From: Escherichia coli
Lineage (GTDB): Bacteria > Pseudomonadota > Gammaproteobacteria > Enterobacterales > Enterobacteriaceae
Length of the DNA: 64,000 nucleotides
Direction: 5' to 3' (one strand)
Assembly (NCBI RefSeq): GCF_016026235.1
Contig: NZ_CP065613.1
This document shows, one piece after another, positions 55,426 to 64,000 of this stretch (within the stretch, counting starts at the first letter, position 1; each line of letters begins with the position of its first letter). Below the pieces are notes generated by a model. That model searched no databases. It was not told the DNA's origin and worked only from the letters and a program-made list of their open reading frames with translations. Made by a program: the position numbers and the translations under genes.

Positions 55426-56475
55426 ATGACGAATATCACCTTACAGAAACAACATCGTACACTGTGGCATTTTATTCTGGGGTTAGCCCTGAGTGCAGTT
55501 ATCACCGGGGTCGCCCTGTGGGGTGGTTCCATTCCCGCGGTTGCGGGTGCCGGGTTTAGTGCCCTCACCCTCGCAATCTTGTTGGGGATGGTTTTAGGCA
55601 ACACCATCTATCCGCACATCTGGAAAAGCTGTGACGGTGGTGTGCTGTTTGCCAAGCAATATTTATTACGTCTGGGTATCATTCTTTATGGCTTCCGTCT
55701 GACGTTCTCGCAAATTGCCGATGTCGGTATCAGTGGGATCATCATTGACGTGTTGACGCTGTCCAGTACCTTCCTGCTGGCTTGCTTCCTGGGGCAGAAA
55801 GTGTTTGGTCTGGATAAGCACACCAGCTGGTTGATCGGTGCCGGTAGCAGTATCTGTGGTGCTGCCGCGGTACTGGCGACTGAGCCGGTAGTGAAAGCGG
55901 AAGCCAGTAAAGTAACCGTGGCTGTTGCAACCGTTGTTATCTTCGGGACCGTCGCGATTTTCCTCTACCCGGCGATATATCCGCTGATGTCTCAATGGGT
56001 TAGTCCGGAAACTTTCGGTATCTACATTGGTTCTACTGTGCACGAAGTGGCGCAGGTGGTGGCGGCAGGTCATGCCATCAGCCCGGATGCAGAAAACGCA
56101 GCAGTTATTTCCAAAATGCTGCGCGTGATGATGCTGGCTCCGTTCCTCATCCTGCTGGCGGCGCGTGTTAAACAGCTGTCTGGGGCGAACAGCGGCGAGA
56201 AAAGCAAAATCACTATTCCGTGGTTTGCCATCTTGTTCATCGTAGTTGCCATCTTTAACTCGTTCCACCTGTTACCGCAGAGCGTGGTGAACATGCTGGT
56301 AACGCTGGATACCTTCCTGCTGGCAATGGCGATGGCGGCGCTGGGTCTGACCACTCACGTCAGCGCGCTGAAAAAAGCCGGGGCGAAACCTCTGCTGATG
56401 GCACTGGTACTGTTTGCCTGGCTGATTGTTGGTGGTGGTGCGATTAACTATGTGATTCAAAGCGTCATCGCATAA
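55426..56475 (+). CDS. yeiH: UPF0324 inner membrane protein
   Basis: 349-aa polytopic protein. Confidence 0.85.
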
Positions 56476-56548
56476 ACCACTACATCTTGCTCCTGTTAAC
56501 CCGCTATCATTACCGTTTTCCTCCAGCGGGTTTAACAGGAGTCCTCGC

Positions 56549-57406
56549 ATGAAATACATTGGAGCGCACGTTAGTGCTGCTGGCGGTCTGGCAAATGCCG
56601 CAATTCGCGCCGCCGAAATCGACGCAACCGCGTTTGCCTTGTTCACCAAAAACCAACGTCAGTGGCGTGCCGCACCGCTCACGACGCAAACCATCGATGA
56701 ATTCAAAGCCGCCTGTGAAAAATATCACTACACATCGGCGCAAATTCTTCCCCACGACAGTTATCTGATTAACCTCGGACATCCGGTCACTGAAGCTCTG
56801 GAAAAATCGCGCGATGCCTTTATAGATGAAATGCAGCGTTGCGAACAGCTGGGGCTTTCTTTGCTCAACTTCCACCCTGGCAGCCATCTGATGCAGATTT
56901 CAGAAGAGGATTGCCTTGCGCGTATTGCCGAATCCATCAACATTGCGCTGGATAAAACTCAAGGTGTGACTGCGGTGATTGAAAACACCGCCGGTCAGGG
57001 CAGTAACTTAGGGTTTAAATTCGAACATCTCGCGGCGATTATCGACGGCGTGGAAGATAAATCCCGTGTCGGCGTCTGCATTGATACCTGCCATGCTTTC
57101 GCTGCCGGGTATGATTTGCGTACTCCAGCCGAATGCGAGAAAACGTTCGCTGATTTTGCCCGTATTGTCGGCTTTAAGTATCTGCGCGGGATGCACCTTA
57201 ACGATGCGAAAAGCACCTTTGGCAGCCGCGTTGACCGCCATCATAGCCTCGGTGCAGGCAATATCGGTCATGATGCGTTCCGCTGGATCATGCAGGACGA
57301 CCGTTTCGACGGCATTCCGCTGATCCTTGAAACCATCAACCCGGATATCTGGGCAGAAGAGATCGCCTGGCTGAAAGCGCAACAAACTGAAAAAGCGGTA
57401 GCCTGA
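56549..57406 (+). CDS. nfo: endonuclease IV
   Basis: 285 aa, AP-endonuclease family 2. Confidence 0.95.
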
Positions 57407-57408
57407 AG

Positions 57409-58497
57409 ATGAATAACCGGGAAAAGGAGATCCTTGCAATTTTACGGCGTAACCCGCTGATTCAGCAGAACGAAATTGCGGACATGCTGCAAATCAGTCG
57501 TTCGCGCGTTGCGGCGCATATTATGGATTTAATGCGCAAAGGCCGGATTAAAGGCAAAGGTTACATTCTCACCGAGCAGGAATACTGCGTAGTGGTGGGG
57601 ACAATCAATATGGATATTCGCGGGATGGCGGATATCCATTACCCACAAGCGGCTTCTCATCCCGGTACAATTCATTGCTCGGCGGGCGGCGTGGGTCGCA
57701 ACATCGCCCACAATCTGGCGCTGTTAGGCCGTGACGTCCATTTGCTTTCAGTGATTGGCGATGACTTTTATGGCGAAATGCTCCTGGAAGAAACGCGCCG
57801 TGCCGGCGTGAATGTCTCCGGCTGCGTTCGTTTGCATGGTCAAAGCACATCGACGTATCTGGCAATTGCCAATCGAGACGATCAAACCGTGCTGGCGATT
57901 AACGATACCCATCTGCTGGAACAGTTGACACCGCAACTACTGAACGGGTCGCGCGATTTACTTCGTCATGCGGGCGTGGTACTGGCTGATTGCAACCTGA
58001 CAGCCGAGGCGCTGGAATGGGTCTTTACCCTCGCTGATGAAATCCCGGTGTTTGTCGATACCGTTTCAGAATTCAAAGCGGGCAAAATCAAACACTGGCT
58101 GGCGCATATTCACACCCTGAAACCCACTTTACCGGAGCTGGAAATTTTATGGGGACAGGCGATCACCAGCGATGCTGACCGTAATGCCGCAGTGAATGCA
58201 TTGCATCAGCAAGGTGTTCAGCAACTGTTTGTTTATTTGCCCGATGAGTCAGTTTATTGCAGCGAAAAGGATGGAGAACAATTTTTGCTGACCGCGCCAG
58301 CGCATACGACAGTAGACAGTTTTGGTGCTGACGATGGTTTTATGGCGGGCCTGGTATATAGCTTTCTTGAAGGATACAGTTTCCGCGACAGCGCCCGTTT
58401 TGCGGTAGCCTGCGCGGCAATTTCGCGCGCCAGCGGCAGCTTAAACAACCCTACCCTGTCTGCCGATAACGCGCTTTCATTAGTGCCAATGGTGTAA
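57409..58497 (+). CDS. yeiI: PfkB-family sugar kinase with N-terminal HTH
   Basis: 362 aa; ribokinase-like fold. Confidence 0.85.
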   Translation: MNNREKEILAILRRNPLIQQNEIADMLQISRSRVAAHIMDLMRKGRIKGKGYILTEQEYCVVVGTINMDIRGMADIHYPQAASHPGTIHCSAGGVGRNIAHNLALLGRDVHLLSVIGDDFYGEMLLEETRRAGVNVSGCVRLHGQSTSTYLAIANRDDQTVLAINDTHLLEQLTPQLLNGSRDLLRHAGVVLADCNLTAEALEWVFTLADEIPVFVDTVSEFKAGKIKHWLAHIHTLKPTLPELEILWGQAITSDADRNAAVNALHQQGVQQLFVYLPDESVYCSEKDGEQFLLTAPAHTTVDSFGADDGFMAGLVYSFLEGYSFRDSARFAVACAAISRASGSLNNPTLSADNALSLVPMV

Positions 58498-58502
58498 CAA
58501 TG

Positions 58503-58540
58503 TTGCCGGATTCGACGCTTGACCGCATCTTATCCGGCTC
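58503..58540. repeat. REP element
   Basis: GCCGGATTCGACGCTTGACCGCATCTTATCCGGC. Confidence 0.5.
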
Positions 58541-58552
58541 ATAAATTGCGCA

Positions 58553-59803
58553 CTACGCTAAACCAATAAAGAATCCTGCAATAGTAGCACTCATCAGGTT
58601 AGAAAGTGTCGCCGCCGCCAGCGCGCGTAAACCAAGTTGGGCGATTTCCGGCGCACGGTGTGGCGCAACCGCAGAAAACGCCCCCACCACCACCCCGATA
58701 GAACCAAAGTTAGCGAAACCGCACAACGCGAAAGAAATAATCGCCACGGTTTTAGCATCCAGAGTGCCACCCGTTTGCAGATATGGCGAGAAATTGAGAT
58801 AAGCGATAAATTCATTGATCGCCAGCTTCTGCCCAATCAAACTCTCGGCAAGATTTGCATCACTCCAGTCAACCCCCATCACCCACGCCAATGGGGCCAA
58901 CAGGTAACCTAAAATGGACTCCAGCGAGGCATGTGCAAAACCAAACCAGCCGCCAACGCCGCCGATAATACCATTAATTAACGCAATGATGGCGACAAAT
59001 GCCATAACAACTGTCGCTACACCGGCGGCGATTTTCAGCCCGGTCATTGCCCCTGTCGCAGCGGCTTCAATAATGCTTTTTGGCGGTGTTTCGGTGAAAG
59101 AGAGGTTATTAAAGGAAACCTGCGAAGATTCCGTAGCCGGGCTTAACAGGCGGGCAAACAAGATCCCGCCTGGGATCGCCATTAACGATGCCGCCAGCAA
59201 ATATTCCACAGGTACGCCCAGGGCGGCGTAACCAATCATTGTCGAACCAGCAATCGAGGCCATGCCACTACAAATCGCTGTAAATAATTCATTGCGATTC
59301 AGACGATCGATAAAGGGTTTGACGATCGCCGGAATTTCGTTTTGCCCGAGGAAAATGGTGGTGACCGCGACGAATGACTCAATCTTGCTGATATTTAATG
59401 CTTTCTGGAATATACCGCCGAGAATGCGAATTAAAATCCCCATCACACCGATGTAGTAGAGAATACTCACCAGTGCAGTGACGAAGATAATTACCGGTAA
59501 TACCCTGAAACCAAAGATAAATCCTGCGCCATCAAACAGCGTGTCCATTTTCGGCCCGACCAGCGAACCGAAGATAAATGCGCTACCCGCGTCGCTGTAC
59601 GCCATCACTTTATGCACGCCAAAAGCGACTTTTTCAGCGACCCAACACCCTGGCGGTAACCAAAGCATAATCCCGCCAATCACGACCTGTAACACTAACG
59701 CCGCGCCAACGGTACGCAGGCTGATCTTCTTCTTGTTTACTGACAGTAAAAACGCAATCGTCAGCAATACCACCATTCCCAGAACACTTCTCATGACATC
59801 CAT
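58553..59803 (-). CDS. nupX: NupC-family nucleoside permease
   Basis: 416 aa; paralog of psuT. Confidence 0.9.
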   Translation of the reverse strand: MDVMRSVLGMVVLLTIAFLLSVNKKKISLRTVGAALVLQVVIGGIMLWLPPGCWVAEKVAFGVHKVMAYSDAGSAFIFGSLVGPKMDTLFDGAGFIFGFRVLPVIIFVTALVSILYYIGVMGILIRILGGIFQKALNISKIESFVAVTTIFLGQNEIPAIVKPFIDRLNRNELFTAICSGMASIAGSTMIGYAALGVPVEYLLAASLMAIPGGILFARLLSPATESSQVSFNNLSFTETPPKSIIEAAATGAMTGLKIAAGVATVVMAFVAIIALINGIIGGVGGWFGFAHASLESILGYLLAPLAWVMGVDWSDANLAESLIGQKLAINEFIAYLNFSPYLQTGGTLDAKTVAIISFALCGFANFGSIGVVVGAFSAVAPHRAPEIAQLGLRALAAATLSNLMSATIAGFFIGLA

Positions 59804-59902
59804 AGTTATTATCTCTTCATGTCATATTGGGCGACGGCTTTCTGCCCCTCAGAAATAGCCGGGCCTGCATCTTGCGATACTGACCCGGCTTGTTATCAAC
59901 AC

Positions 59903-60844
59903 TTAATGGGTTTTGATGTAGCCGCGCACGCACTCTTCGACTAAGCCCCAGAACCAGTCGGTATCAATAGTGATGCCGACTTTGGTATTAGCGGGCTTGC
60001 CAAGAACGCCCAGCTCGTCGCAGACGGTACGCCCATAGCAAGGGCCACTGTTGACGTCCACTTCGACGTACATCTCCTGGGTTTTAATGCCATCAGGGTT
60101 AATCAGATAACCGATGCAGGTGGCGTCGTGCACCGGGCCGCCAGCCAGGCCGTAGTTTTCGAACTGGGTTTTGAGAGTGAAGTTCATGATGTCGCTGAAC
60201 AGCTCTCCGGCAGGGCCGCCTGCCCTTTCCATTCGTGCAATCACGTCCGGGGTGCAAACGGTCTGGTTGGTAAGATCGAGGCCCATCATCACTAATGGAA
60301 CGCCAGAAGTGAACACCACGCGTGCGGCTTCCGGGTCAGCAAAGATGTTGAACTCGGCAGATGGCGTGAAGTTGCCTGTACCGTAAGCGCCGCCCATTAG
60401 CACAATTTCACGAATTTTAGGCAGGATCGCGGGTTGCATACGCATTGCCACCGCGATATTTGAAAGCGGACCAACCGGCACCAGAGTGATATCGCCATCG
60501 CTTGCCATCAGGGTATCAATGATGTATTTCACCGCGTGGGTACTTTCTGCCTGGCGGGTCAGCGGCTCGAATACCGGGCCATCCAGTCCGGTTTCACCGT
60601 GAATATTATCGGCAACGATTTGTTGACGCATAATGGGTTGCGGCATCCCCGCATAAACCGGAACATTAATCTCCAGTTTCTGGCAAACATTCAGGCCATT
60701 AATTAATGTTTTATCAAGCGTCTGATTACCCGCTACAATAGTGATGCCTAATAAATCTATTGCCGGATGTTTCGCTGCCATCATCATTGCAATAGCATCA
60801 TCATGACCCGGATCACAATCCAGAATAATTTTTCTCTTTTCCAT
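59903..60844 (-). CDS. rihB: pyrimidine-specific ribonucleoside hydrolase
   Basis: IU-nucleoside hydrolase N-terminal DCDPGHDD motif. Confidence 0.9.
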
Positions 60845-61012
60845 TGTTTATTTCCTCTGTTTCCAGTTGCGTTATTTTTTCTACAGCAAAGAAAATTCGA
60901 CCGGGCCGATGATTGAATCTTAACAACAGCGTACGTATGCTAAATATGAGAAATCTCACAGCGGATAAACATCGTGAAAGAAATCCACAATAATGATCTT
61001 AAGCTGCAATTG

Positions 61013-61672
61013 ATGAGTGAATCCGCGTTTAAGGATTGCTTTTTAACGGATGTTTCAGCCGATACGCGGCTGTTTCATTTTTTAGCGCGTGACTACATTG
61101 TGCAGGAAGGGCAACAGCCGTCCTGGCTGTTTTACCTGACGCGAGGCCGCGCCAGGCTTTACGCCACGCTAGCTAATGGTCGCGTGTCGCTGATCGATTT
61201 CTTTGCCGCCCCCTGTTTTATTGGTGAGATTGAGTTAATCGATAAAGACCATGAACCGCGTGCGGTACAGGCTATTGAAGAGTGTTGGTGCCTTGCGCTC
61301 CCTATGAAACATTACCGTCCGCTGTTATTAAACGACACCCTATTTTTACGAAAACTTTGCGTCACCTTAAGTCATAAAAATTATCGTAATATTGTTTCTT
61401 TAACTCAGAATCAATCATTTCCGTTAGTGAATCGCCTGGCAGCATTTATATTACTCTCACAAGAAGGTGATCTTTATCACGAAAAGCATACGCAAGCGGC
61501 AGAGTATTTAGGCGTTTCTTATCGACATCTTTTATATGTTCTCGCGCAATTCATTCACGACGGTTTATTAATTAAAAGCAAGAAAGGATATCTAATTAAA
61601 AACAGAAAGCAGTTGTCAGGGCTGGCGCTGGAGATGGACCCGGAGAATAAATTCTCCGGGATGATGCAGTAA
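61013..61672 (+). CDS. yeiL: CRP/FNR-family regulator
   Basis: 219 aa from [11 protein letters not shown]…. Confidence 0.85.
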
Positions 61673-61691
61673 AAATTATTTGCAATAGCGC

Positions 61692-61735
61692 GATTGCCGG
61701 ATACAACGCTTGATGCGTTTTATCCGGTCTACAAA
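61692..61735. repeat. REP element
   Basis: GCCGGATACAACGCTTGATGCGTTTTATCCGGTCTAC. Confidence 0.5.
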
Positions 61736-61742
61736 TTGAGCA

Positions 61743-62993
61743 TTACGCCAGACCAATAAAGAACCCGGCAATGGTCGCGCTCATCAGGTTGGAAAGCGTT
61801 GCTGCTGCCAGCGCCCGTAAACCAAGCTGAGCGATTTCCGGTGCACGTTTTGGCGAAATAGCCGAAAATGCGCCAACGACAACACCGATAGAACCAAAGT
61901 TAGCAAAACCACAAAGCGCAAAGGAGATAATCGCAATGGTTTTCACTTCCAGCGTGCCGCCCGTTTGCAGGTATGGGGAGAAACTCAGGTAAGCGACGAA
62001 TTCGTTAATCGCCAGTTTCTGCCCAATCAGGCTACCCGCAAGGTTGGCATCACTCCAGTCCACACCCATGATCCACGCCAGCGGTGCCAGCACATAGCCA
62101 AAAATACTTTCCAGAGAAGCATTGGTAAAACCAAACCAACCGCCAATTCCGCCGATAATGCCATTAATCAGCGCAATAATTGCGACAAACGCCATTACCA
62201 CCGTCGCCACACCGGCGGCGATTTTCAACCCGGTCATCGCACCGCTCGCCGCCGCTTCGATAAAGCTTTTTGGCGGCGTTTCACTGAACGACAGATTTTC
62301 AAATGTGACCTGCGAAGGCTCGGTTGCCGGACTAAGAATACGTGCAAACAAAATACCGCCGGGGATCGCCATCAGCGATGCCGCCAACAGGTAGTCAATT
62401 GGTACGCCCATTCCGGCATAACCAATCATCATCGAACCCGCAATGGACGCCATCCCGCTACAAATTGCGGTAAACAACTCGTTGCGATTCATGCGATCGA
62501 TAAACGGTTTAACGATCGCCGGGATCTCATTTTGCCCGAGGAAAATAGTAGTAACCGCAACAAAAGATTCGATTTTGCTGATGTTGAGGGCTTTCTGGAA
62601 AATGCTGCCAAGGATGCGAATCAGCAGCCCCATCACGCCAATGTAGTACAGCAGACTGATGAGCGCAGTGACGAAGATAATCGCCGGGAGTACGCGAAAG
62701 GCGAAGATAAAGCCTGCGCCATCAAACAGGACATCCATTTTCGGCCCAACCAGCGAACCAAAAATGAAGGCGCTACCGGCATCACTGTAAGACATCACTT
62801 TATGAACACCTAATGCCGCCTGTTCTACTGCCCATTTTCCCGGCGGAAAATAGAGCATGATGCCACCAATAGCGATTTGCAGCAGCAGTGCGGCTCCAAC
62901 CGTGCGCAAACTGATGCTCTTTTTATTTACCGACAACAGAAATGCTATTGCCAGTAACACCACCATCCCCACAACACTTCTCATTATATCCAT
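61743..62993 (-). CDS. psuT: putative pseudouridine/nucleoside transporter (NupC family)
   Basis: 416 aa, about 88% identical to NupX. Confidence 0.9.
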   Translation of the reverse strand: MDIMRSVVGMVVLLAIAFLLSVNKKSISLRTVGAALLLQIAIGGIMLYFPPGKWAVEQAALGVHKVMSYSDAGSAFIFGSLVGPKMDVLFDGAGFIFAFRVLPAIIFVTALISLLYYIGVMGLLIRILGSIFQKALNISKIESFVAVTTIFLGQNEIPAIVKPFIDRMNRNELFTAICSGMASIAGSMMIGYAGMGVPIDYLLAASLMAIPGGILFARILSPATEPSQVTFENLSFSETPPKSFIEAAASGAMTGLKIAAGVATVVMAFVAIIALINGIIGGIGGWFGFTNASLESIFGYVLAPLAWIMGVDWSDANLAGSLIGQKLAINEFVAYLSFSPYLQTGGTLEVKTIAIISFALCGFANFGSIGVVVGAFSAISPKRAPEIAQLGLRALAAATLSNLMSATIAGFFIGLA

Positions 62994-63086
62994 AATGATT
63001 TTCCCTTCATGCCAGTAAACCCGGCGTCAGCGCCAGGTTTCGGTATGTATGATCAGTACGGGCGACGGCTTTCTGCCCGTCAGAAA

Positions 63087-64000
63087 TTAACCCGCGAGAC
63101 GCTGATATTCTTTGGCAATTTCGCTCGCCAGAATGGCGTTGTTGAACACCAGCTGGATGTTGGATTTCAGGCTGTCACCGCCGGTCAGCTCAGCAACGCG
63201 CGCCAGCAGGAATGGCGTACTTTCTTTACCAATAACACCCTGCGCTTCAGCTTCAGCTACCGCCTGATCGCCGCATTGATAGTGTGTTCCGGCATAGCAA
63301 ACTGTTCCGGGATCGGGTTCGCTACCACGAGGCCACCGTTCAGCCCGCTTTGCCATTTCACCGCCATTGCACGGGCAATTTCGCTGGCGCTGTCGAGACG
63401 AATGCTGACGTCAAACGGGCTGGTACGGCAGAAAAACGCAGGCAGCGCTTTAGTCTGATAGCCAATTAACGGCACACCGAAGGTTTCTAAATACTCAGTG
63501 GTTAATCCTAAATCGAGAATAGATTTCGCCCCGGCACAAACAACGGTGACATTAGTATTTGCCAGTTCTTGCAAATCGGCAGAAATATCGAAGGTATGTT
63601 CCGCCCCGCGATGAACACCACCAATTCCCCCGGTGGCAAATACTTTAATTCCGGCAAGCGCCGCAATAATCATCGTTGAAGCCACAGTGGTTGCGCCATT
63701 TTTTCCGGCGGCAACAACAAAAGGTAAATCGCGACGACTAACTTTGGTCACGTTATGCCCTTCACGACCCAGTAATTCAATTTCTTCTTTGCTTAAACCC
63801 ACTTTCATCACGCCACCAATAATGGCGATAGTGGCAGGTACTGCGCCCTGTTTACGAATAGTTTCTTCAACTTCAATTGCGGTCTGGGCATTTTGTGGGA
63901 ACGGCATCCCGTGAGAAATAATGGTCGATTCCAGCGCCACAACCGGTTTTTTGTTTTTTAAAGCGTCCTGCACTTCCGGGGAAATTTGTAATAATTCAGG
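63087..64000 (-). pseudogene. psuG: pseudouridine-5'-phosphate glycosidase, frameshifted; 5' end beyond window
   Basis: Homology split between two overlapping frames (track ORFs 63257-63973 and 63087-63356). Confidence 0.6.

Follow-up and report, generated by a model that had tools for sequence, protein, structure and literature searches.

Related transporters and recombination between diverged genes

The classic case of interlocus gene conversion is that of tufA and tufB in Salmonella and E. coli, which frequent conversion keeps approximately 99% identical. For the oxa genes, which are 22% diverged, RecABCD-dependent recombination in E. coli is reduced about 100-fold relative to identical DNA, with joints located mostly in the longer identical blocks; the efficiency of lambda Red on the same genes exceeds that of RecABCD about 100-fold, and RecET acts on homologies of 5-13 bp (PMC2327257). 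Depending on the pathway, efficient recombination needs a minimal identical segment (MEPS) of 23-90 bp (PMC3758752). Within the concentrative nucleoside transporter family (CNT/NupC; TIGR00804), E. coli NupX (P33021) and PsuT/YeiM (P33024) group together in a clade with vcCNT, apart from NupC; NupX shows weak uptake of uridine and cytidine, PsuT takes up neither of these nor xanthosine (PMC11241209). The two copies are thus not redundant. The name of PsuT rests on its operon context.

Here, we analyzed the nupX/psuT locus in a 64,000-nt stretch of E. coli DNA (the window), in which both genes encode full-length family members with no structural difference from the described proteins. The two genes are very probably ancient paralogues that, arranged as direct repeats, undergo rare homology-guided exchange resulting in deletions and conversion tracts, making the locus an ordinary instance of a familiar process. 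As in tufA/tufB, a contiguous tract was copied between paralogues with native sequence retained on both sides (131 nt in ABWA45), but conversion of nupX/psuT is too rare to homogenize the genes, whose dS exceeds 1. The similarities to the oxa genes include the degree of divergence, the rarity of events, the in-frame hybrids and the location of joints mostly in the longest identical blocks, whereas the nupX/psuT events, in contrast to those of the lambda inversion assay used for oxa, are natural, chromosomal and distributed across isolates, and comprise deletion and conversion products only (PMC2327257).

Organization of the locus

The transporter genes nupX (yeiJ, repeat copy A; 58553..59803) and psuT (yeiM, repeat copy B; 61743..62993) are both located on the minus strand and correspond to the genes annotated as nupX and psuT, respectively, in matching E. 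coli records. Each consists of a 1,251-nt ORF encoding a 416-aa NupC/CNT-family protein (a nucleoside transporter in the case of NupX), and both exceed the curated cut-off of 442 bits for TIGR00804 (NCBIfam, NupC/NupG CNT transporters; 492.3 bits for nupX and 517.6 bits for psuT) across profile positions 1-401 of 401. The intervening segment contains rihB (yeiK; 59903..60844, minus strand), encoding a pyrimidine ribonucleoside hydrolase (full-length match to equivalog NF007417, 728 bits), and yeiL (60974..61672, plus strand), encoding a CRP/FNR-family regulator (full-length match to NF007707, 416 bits). On one side, the locus is flanked by yeiI (57409..58497, plus strand; HTH and PfkB-type sugar kinase), which is convergent with nupX, and on the other by the psuG ORF (63087..64000, minus strand), the 5' end of which is cut by the window edge. 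psuT is the last gene of psuK-psuG-psuT, the operon for pseudouridine catabolism. In the window strain, psuG is frameshifted by a 4-bp deletion at approximately 63270/63271. A sequence-only reading of this region had described two paralogous NupC-family genes of about 88% protein identity in the same orientation, 3.2 kb apart and flanking rihB-yeiL, and all of this agrees with the direct orientation, the start-to-start spacing of 3,190 bp and the amino acid identity of 365/416 (87.7%, ungapped alignment) found here.

The similarity extends past the coding sequences, on the 3' side over a REP-like flank of approximately 50 nt and on the 5' side over a 28-nt element of 96% identity, with a 41-nt indel. 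By repeat search and alignment, the full repeat unit A (58503..59856, minus strand; 1,354 nt) consists of the REP-like 3' flank, nupX, the RBS region and an upstream stem-loop element, and unit B (61694..63087, minus strand; 1,394 nt) of the REP-like 3' flank, psuT, a 5' leader containing the 41-nt extra segment and the upstream stem-loop element. The conserved stem-loop elements are located on the minus strand at 59827..59849 upstream of nupX (AGGGGCAGAAAGCCGTCGCCCAA) and at 63058..63080 upstream of psuT (ACGGGCAGAAAGCCGTCGCCCGT), the latter directly past the psuG stop codon. A palindrome of the GCCGGATAAG...CATCCGGC type is visible in the 3' flanks of both genes. An Rfam scan of 56000-64000 (E<=1) yielded no match to the conserved upstream element; the sole match was a sub-threshold hit to the REP-derived naRNA4 at 61665-61729 (30.4 bits vs 59.5, E=0.022).

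Divergence of the two copies

The ungapped nucleotide alignment of nupX and psuT contains 977 identical positions out of 1,251 (78.1%), with identities of 87.5, 95.7 and 51.1% at the first, second and third codon positions, respectively. Across six genomes, dS ranges from 1.28 to 1.55 and dN is approximately 0.075 (dN/dS ~0.05), and both genes are maintained by strong purifying selection. The resemblance clearly points to homology and not to chance.

Uninterrupted identity between the copies is short. The longest identical block in the window is 20 nt (58695..58714, partner 61885-61904), which is below the MEPS length usually given for efficient RecA-dependent exchange (~23-30 bp of uninterrupted identity; PMC3758752, PMC2327257), while the pairs of K-12 (blocks of 38, 23, 21, 20 and 20 nt) and O103:H2 (32, 30 and 26 nt) reach it. 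The pair of the window strain is therefore a weaker substrate than, for example, that of K-12.

Origin of the gene pair

E. albertii, three Citrobacter species and Leclercia contain the gene order psuK-psuG-psuT-yeiI-nfo-yeiH with one transporter, and yeiI is located directly beside psuT. The E. coli locus thus corresponds to the single-transporter psu locus of E. albertii and Citrobacter plus one yeiL-rihB-transporter cassette of the Superficieibacter electus type. In E. coli this cassette lies directly against psuT, creating the direct repeats, whereas in Superficieibacter electus it occurs at another locus, without psu genes. In the phylogeny, Escherichia and Citrobacter PsuT form a group excluding NupX (97% bootstrap), and NupX groups with the transporter of the rihB-linked Superficieibacter cassette (94%). 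From the single-transporter relatives and this grouping of NupX, it appears that E. coli gained the 3.19-kb yeiL-rihB-nupX module between psuT and yeiI. The two genes are accordingly best regarded as ancient paralogues that were probably brought together by module gain and not by local duplication.

A recent local tandem duplication within E. coli, followed by insertion of rihB-yeiL, could account for the repetition of the whole unit together with its upstream stem-loop and REP-like 3' flank. However, transporters of other genera are likewise accompanied by these flanking elements, synonymous divergence is saturated (dS 1.3-1.5), and a clade consisting of E. coli NupX and PsuT only received 0% bootstrap support, against 97% and 94% for the alternative groupings, which renders a recent duplication extremely improbable. 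Instead of a recent duplicate pair, nupX/psuT would be the scar left where a pyrimidine-nucleoside module of three genes was acquired.

Homologous (Campbell-type) recombination of a transporter gene carried on the cassette with the resident psuT may have brought the module into the E. coli ancestor. This route, which we consider rather unlikely and put forward tentatively, would explain why the 3' boundary of the module lies exactly at the end of the transporter coding sequence and why the whole unit of stem-loop, gene and REP-like flank is repeated. If true, the module would be a reversible cassette bounded by recombination substrates, its occasional excision would yield natural PsuT/NupX domain-swap transporters, and the resulting chimeras could help to map determinants of substrate specificity.

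Deletion of rihB-yeiL by exchange between the copies

Among 5,426 complete RefSeq E. coli genomes, a sample that is clonally biased so that frequencies do not represent rates, five (SY019, EH10-18-47, E203449, CFSAN004176 and 11PC) contain a single chimeric gene with a psuT 5' part and a nupX 3' part between psuG and yeiI and lack rihB-yeiL, as identified with a junction probe and in agreement with annotation. Overall, rihB and yeiL are present in 5,418 genomes and rihB-yeiL is absent from eight. All five chimeras are in-frame ORFs of 416 aa in which psuT-type sequence changes to nupX-type sequence in one switch, with the intervening segment lost and the flanks unchanged, as expected from unequal crossover. 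Switches were mapped with a seven-genome panel (256 fixed and 397 majority-diagnostic sites), which replaced the window's own alleles because the window derives from a divergent lineage and rendered the junction zone noisy. The five junction intervals all differ (gene positions 757-767, 925-947, 965-977, 1084-1088 and 1198-1202) and are confined to 58602..59047 of nupX, equivalent to 61792-62237 of psuT. The chimeras swap at residues ~253-400.

These observations support five independent deletions. The 11PC case, the junction of which falls in the last ~50 nt of the coding sequence, is less secure as a deletion, since single-copy outgroup psuT genes are themselves nupX-like in this part. It is conceivable that single-transporter genomes never had the module or regained psuG-psuT-yeiI from a relative, for instance E. 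albertii, by transfer, as their gene order is exactly the ancestral one and the last ~10 nt and the 3' flank of E. albertii psuT are nupX-type, so that a junction like that of 11PC (1198-1202) would mimic the ancestral state. Yet four of the five chimeras contain 160-490 nt of unmistakable nupX-type 3' coding sequence where E. albertii psuT remains psuT-type to ~1240, the psuT parts of all five are ordinary E. coli alleles and not E. albertii-like, and five different junctions need five events. Furthermore, the EH10-18-47 chimera is a perfect join of K-12 psuT and K-12 nupX within a 23-nt identical block, with 0 mismatches. We therefore regard such an origin as very improbable. Even less credence can be given to an assembly artefact in which the two paralogues collapsed into one. 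Some records are 'whole genome shotgun' chromosome-level assemblies, but two of the chimera records are complete, finished genomes, an identity of 78% is far below what repeat collapse would need, and in-frame genes with one switch each argue against it, as do the four distinct chimeric proteins that recur in exact form on 4, 6, 6 and 29 separate contigs in NCBI, ENA and Logan.

In the favored scenario of deletion by exchange between the repeats, exchanges would start within the 3'-terminal third of each gene, in a few identical blocks of ~11-38 bases. Unequal crossover would then delete 3,190 bp, comprising the 5' part of nupX, rihB, yeiL and the 3' part of psuT, leaving an in-frame psuT::nupX chimera and restoring the ancestral gene order; short non-reciprocal gene-conversion tracts would be the second product. 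The junctions are located in or beside the longest identical blocks, which in various genomes are 23-32 nt at 754-757, 23 nt at 925, 17 nt at 973, 20 nt at 1090 and 14-29 nt at 1204-1222. The deletion junction of E203449 adjoins the 20-nt block at 58695-58714.

The enzymology would be RecA/RecBCD-type homeologous recombination, prophage Red/RecET or RecA-independent template switching. Real exchanges that are not RecA-mediated, arising through slipped misalignment or RecA-independent template switching at short identities or through divergence-tolerant prophage recombinases (Red, RecET), are a possibility that retains some weight, although we consider it unlikely. With the parental alleles used, three junction intervals span 5-13 nt and the parents are imperfect (2-32 residual mismatches), so that microhomology-type mechanisms are compatible with the data. 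An identity of 78%, the efficiency of Red at 22% divergence and the 5-13 bp used by RecET point in the same direction (PMC2327257). Lambdoid prophages are also found in most natural E. coli. However, the junctions are concentrated at or next to the longest identical blocks and not at random microhomologies, the same joint distribution as that of RecABCD events at 22% divergence (PMC2327257), and a clearly illegitimate deletion at this locus, the common internal nupX deletion described below, looks different. A spacing of 3.2 kb is, moreover, far for replication slippage.

The sequence-only reading had suggested that recombination between the two genes might delete or duplicate the genes lying between them, an idea to be abandoned if nucleotide identity proved too low for homologous recombination and other genomes showed no structural variation. 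Identity is indeed low at 78%, but deletion products exist, and the recombination idea is supported for deletion, with events restricted to ~0.1% of genomes. The duplication part was not recovered: a synthetic junction probe for the reciprocal product, a nupX::psuT hybrid between rihB and yeiL in a locus with three transporter copies, had 0 true matches in the 5,426 genomes. The repeats recombine poorly, without being inert. As a natural case, the locus shows in numbers the extent to which divergence limits ectopic recombination in E. coli: with copies that are 78% identical, 5,426 genomes contained five deletions, a few conversion tracts and no duplication, and every joint was at or beside the longest identical blocks. 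In the natural chimeras, domains are already swapped between a transporter with weak uridine/cytidine uptake and a putative pseudouridine transporter. The practical value is modest. In a search of the open-access literature, we encountered neither nupX/psuT hybrids nor variation of the yeiL-rihB-nupX module.

Gene conversion and other variants

Positions 979-1109 (131 nt) of ABWA45 nupX are 100% identical to the psuT of the same genome, while both flanks are nupX-type. The 100-nt core of this tract has 0 mismatches to psuT compared to 21 to unconverted nupX, and the 3' edge of the whole tract coincides with the 20-nt block at 58695-58714. ABWA45 nupX is thus an interlocus gene conversion product, and this allele was identified in 10 genomes. 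Shorter conversion tracts are present in Z0117EC0005 and in K-12-type nupX. In pangenome analyses, caution is warranted, as some strains have a hybrid or converted allele under the name 'psuT' or 'nupX'.

In O103:H2 and B2 strains, nupX-type bases scattered through the psuT allele were also considered as conversion and rejected, as E. albertii psuT shows the same pattern, including a run of 7-8 sites; this is a deeply divergent, E. albertii-like allele and not a recent conversion. BA92, the lone match of the duplication probe above 80% coverage, contains an internal rihB deletion instead. Two further rearrangements, the yeiI to psuK deletion of CUPS04 and, in TOK-001, a loss of rihB together with the 5' end of nupX that is associated with IS1, are unrelated to the repeats. 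A short rihB probe matched in two places in 7 genomes; these are not nupX/psuT junction duplications and possibly reflect IS insertion or a larger duplication.

The commonest variant of the locus is an internal nupX deletion of ~1.14 kb, found in 971 genomes (about 18%). These 'nupX-less' genomes were rejected as products of paralogue-mediated recombination, as the deletion is internal to nupX and occurred at GTTA-type microhomology of ~4 nt, so that ~45 nt remain at the 3' end of the gene and ~66 nt at its 5' end.

Structure of the nupX and psuT repeats

Both genes are minus-strand open reading frames of 1,251 nt encoding 416 aa (nupX, 58553-59803; psuT, 61743-62993), are so annotated in near-identical E. 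coli records, and encode full-length transporters of the NupC/NupG CNT family (TIGR00804; 492 and 518 bits, respectively, with a cut-off of 442 bits). They enclose rihB (59903-60844, minus strand) and yeiL (60974-61672, plus strand) and are flanked by yeiI (57409-58497, plus strand) on the nupX side and psuG (from 63087, minus strand) on the psuT side. The sequence-only reading had described two same-orientation repeats of approximately 88% protein identity, which was confirmed (365/416 residues, 87.7%; 3,190 bp from start to start). Nucleotide identity reaches only 78.1%, falling to 51% at third codon positions. The homology outruns the coding sequences, comprising an approximately 50-nt REP-like flank at the 3' end and, at the 5' end, the ribosome-binding region and a 28-nt element (27/28 identical), which an extra 41 nt separates from the ribosome-binding region on the psuT side. 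The full repeat units thus span 58503-59856 (nupX) and 61694-63087 (psuT). The yeiI-nupX spacer measures 55 nt in the window (58498-58552), O157:H7 and 55989, and 106 nt in K-12-type genomes (2090-2195 of the K-12 comparison locus L009), which carry an additional 51-nt REP/BIME-like insertion.

NupX is an inefficient transporter of uridine and cytidine, uptake of uridine, cytidine or xanthosine by PsuT was not detected, and psuT is named after the pseudouridine operon to which it belongs (PMC11241209). RihB hydrolyses ribonucleosides, preferring those of pyrimidines (PMC10526354).

Deletion and gene conversion between the repeats

Among 5,426 complete E. coli genomes, 5,331 matched the whole locus over at least 80% of its length and 5,418 matched rihB-yeiL. 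Five genomes (SY019, EH10-18-47, E203449, CFSAN004176 and 11PC) were identified with a probe for the contiguous yeiI-transporter-psuG junction, and their annotation places a single 416-aa NupC-family gene between yeiI and psuG. Comparison with intact loci from a panel of genomes (256 fixed and 397 majority-diagnostic sites) showed that all five chimeras switch once, from psuT-type at the 5' end to nupX-type at the 3' end, the polarity that would be expected for an unequal crossover removing 3,190 bp. The hydrolase and regulator genes are thereby lost, and the N-terminal 60-95% of PsuT is joined to the NupX C-terminus. Counted along the transporter gene, the junctions lie at 757-767 (11 nt; SY019), 925-947 (23 nt; EH10-18-47), 965-977 (13 nt; CFSAN004176), 1084-1088 (5 nt; E203449) and 1198-1202 (5 nt; 11PC); as all of them differ, they represent five separate events. 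They fall on or next to the longest identical blocks found in one or other genome (23-32 nt at 754-757, 23 nt at 925, 17 nt at 973, 20 nt at 1090 and 14-29 nt at 1204-1222), and the EH10-18-47 chimera matches K-12 psuT and K-12 nupX without a mismatch, joined within a 23-nt identical block. Assembly artefacts were ruled out because the exact chimeric proteins recur on 4, 6, 6 and 29 independent public contigs. The least secure case is 11PC, as its junction falls where the ancestral psuT was already nupX-like; its product is identical to K-12 PsuT. Repeat-mediated deletion of rihB-yeiL, which the sequence-only reading had considered possible, was therefore borne out, in 5/5,426 genomes.

RecABCD-dependent events between 22%-diverged genes in E. 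coli are approximately 100-fold rarer than with identical DNA, are Ruv-resolved and have their joints mostly within longer identical blocks (PMC2327257). In E. coli the minimal efficient processing segment (MEPS) varies between pathways (23-90 bp), and heteroduplex containing mismatches is aborted by mismatch repair (PMC3758752). Since the nupX/psuT products and joint positions agree with such homeologous recombination (PMC2327257, PMC3758752), RecA-type exchange starting in the longest identical blocks would be the most likely route. Lambda Red is approximately 100-fold more efficient on 22%-diverged genes and homologies of 5-13 bp suffice for RecET (PMC2327257). Some of the exchanges may stem from template switching or prophage recombinases, a substantial minority possibility, the joint positions favouring the RecA-type route. 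The longest identical run in the window is only 20 nt, making this strain's pair a weaker substrate than that of K-12, with blocks of 38, 23, 21, 20 and 20 nt.

The duplication-junction probe also revealed genomes with psuT-matching sequence in the 3' part of nupX. In ABWA45, a 131-nt stretch of nupX (positions 979-1109) is identical to that genome's own psuT and is bordered by nupX-type sequence on either side; the 100-nt core of this tract has 0 mismatches to psuT and 21 to unconverted nupX. The allele is present in 10 genomes, several from the same strain series, and shorter psuT-like patches were found in Z0117EC0005 (~1179-1203) and in K-12-type nupX (~1113-1146). Gene conversion thus occurs, but much too rarely to homogenise the pair. 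In the ABWA45 lineage, the recipient of the 131-nt conversion, psuT is itself a pseudogene by annotation, interrupted by an internal stop (L016 7738-8988).

A synthetic probe for the reciprocal duplication, whose halves are unjoined in intact genomes, had no true match in the 5,426 genomes; the sole candidate, BA92, was rejected as an internal rihB deletion. Of the proposed roles of the repeats as recombination substrates, deletion was thus supported, with gene conversion in addition, and duplication was not found. This is a textbook process acting, rarely, on known genes, and nupX/psuT is a newly documented instance of it.

By far the commonest locus variant, shared by 971/5,426 complete genomes (18%), is a single deletion of approximately 1.14 kb, after which about 45 nt of nupX remain at the 3' end and about 66 nt at the 5' end (KE51, L002 4090-4260). 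It was rejected as psuT-mediated, being internal to nupX and joined at an approximately 4-nt microhomology. Its prevalence indicates that nupX is dispensable in a large, successful lineage. Deletions in CUPS04 (yeiI to psuK) and TOK-001 (IS1-associated) are not linked to the repeats either. In CUPS04 (L003 6001-7803; one genome), the loss extends from within the 3' part of yeiI as far as psuK, and the remaining, truncated yeiI overlaps a gene for a psuK-like kinase; the yeiI and psuK-like kinases are approximately 40% identical paralogues in opposite orientation. Furthermore, a 401-nt internal rihB probe matched two separate places in seven genomes, and six locus matches were on records labelled plasmids.

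Age and origin of the pair

Synonymous divergence between nupX and psuT is saturated (dS 1.28-1.55; dN ~0.075, dN/dS ~0.05; Nei-Gojobori, six genomes), and both are old genes under purifying selection. Among the matches listed, compared as one genome per species, E. albertii, three Citrobacter species and Leclercia share the order psuK-psuG-psuT-yeiI-nfo-yeiH. Their sole transporter shares 88-98% identity with E. coli PsuT, and yeiL, rihB and a second transporter are absent from this locus. Superficieibacter electus carries a yeiL-rihB-transporter cassette at a locus without psu genes. In a protein neighbour-joining tree (300 bootstraps), Escherichia and Citrobacter PsuT form a clade without NupX (97%), NupX groups with the Superficieibacter cassette transporter (94%), and an E. 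coli-only NupX+PsuT clade was never recovered (0%). In E. albertii, psuT is of the psuT type except for its last ~10 nt, which, like the yeiI-side flank, are of the type now on E. coli nupX. This indicates that E. coli carries an additional 3.19-kb yeiL-rihB-nupX module bounded at the extreme end of the transporter gene. We infer that the E. coli lineage acquired this module; an old arrangement repeatedly lost in the relatives would be less parsimonious. For the gain, homologous, Campbell-type insertion via the transporter gene would fit the module boundary, but is a rather doubtful mode of entry.

Stem-loop, allelic dimorphism and apparent operon decay

Three further features are possibly worth more attention than the repeats. 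A conserved 23-nt stem-loop (ACGGGC-AGAAAGCCGTC-GCCCGT; core GGCAG-N3-GC-N-GTCGCC) lies on the minus strand at 59827-59849 (nupX) and 63058-63080 (psuT), the only two occurrences of the core within the 64-kb window. It is located 58-87 nt upstream of each transporter start (window and comparison loci L018-L023 and L027) and, in the loci examined, occurs once before every PsuT/NupX-clade transporter of Escherichia, Citrobacter, Leclercia and Superficieibacter, with either psuG or rihB as the upstream gene. The Leclercia stem-loop contains a compensatory change (G-C to A-U), and that of E. albertii contains G-U pairs, valid on the sense strand only. Rfam returned no match for it. The element may function in intercistronic mRNA processing, stability or translation, or as a protein-binding site.

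Two haplotypes of yeiI in E. coli are only 81% identical in nucleotide sequence (L009 vs L011, L013 and L002; window 57409-58497). The 55989/O103/B2 type shows 91% identity to E. albertii, the distance normally separating the two species and seen for nfo as well. For the K-12 type, also that of the window, the identity to E. albertii is only 78.7%, which suggests an old replacement by foreign DNA. A similar dimorphism of approximately 10% affects psuT (dS ~0.55) and psuG, the O103/B2 type being nearer E. albertii.

Compared with K-12 and O157:H7, psuG of the window (minus strand) has a 4-bp deletion in a CGATCGAT repeat (~63270/63271), causing a frameshift and premature stop and leaving two open reading frames (63257-63973 and 63087-63356). 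An IS5 splits psuG in FDAARGOS_943, the closest record at 99.7% identity, where psuK also has an internal stop. Judging from these lesions, the pseudouridine operon seems to be decaying in this lineage, with psuT still intact.
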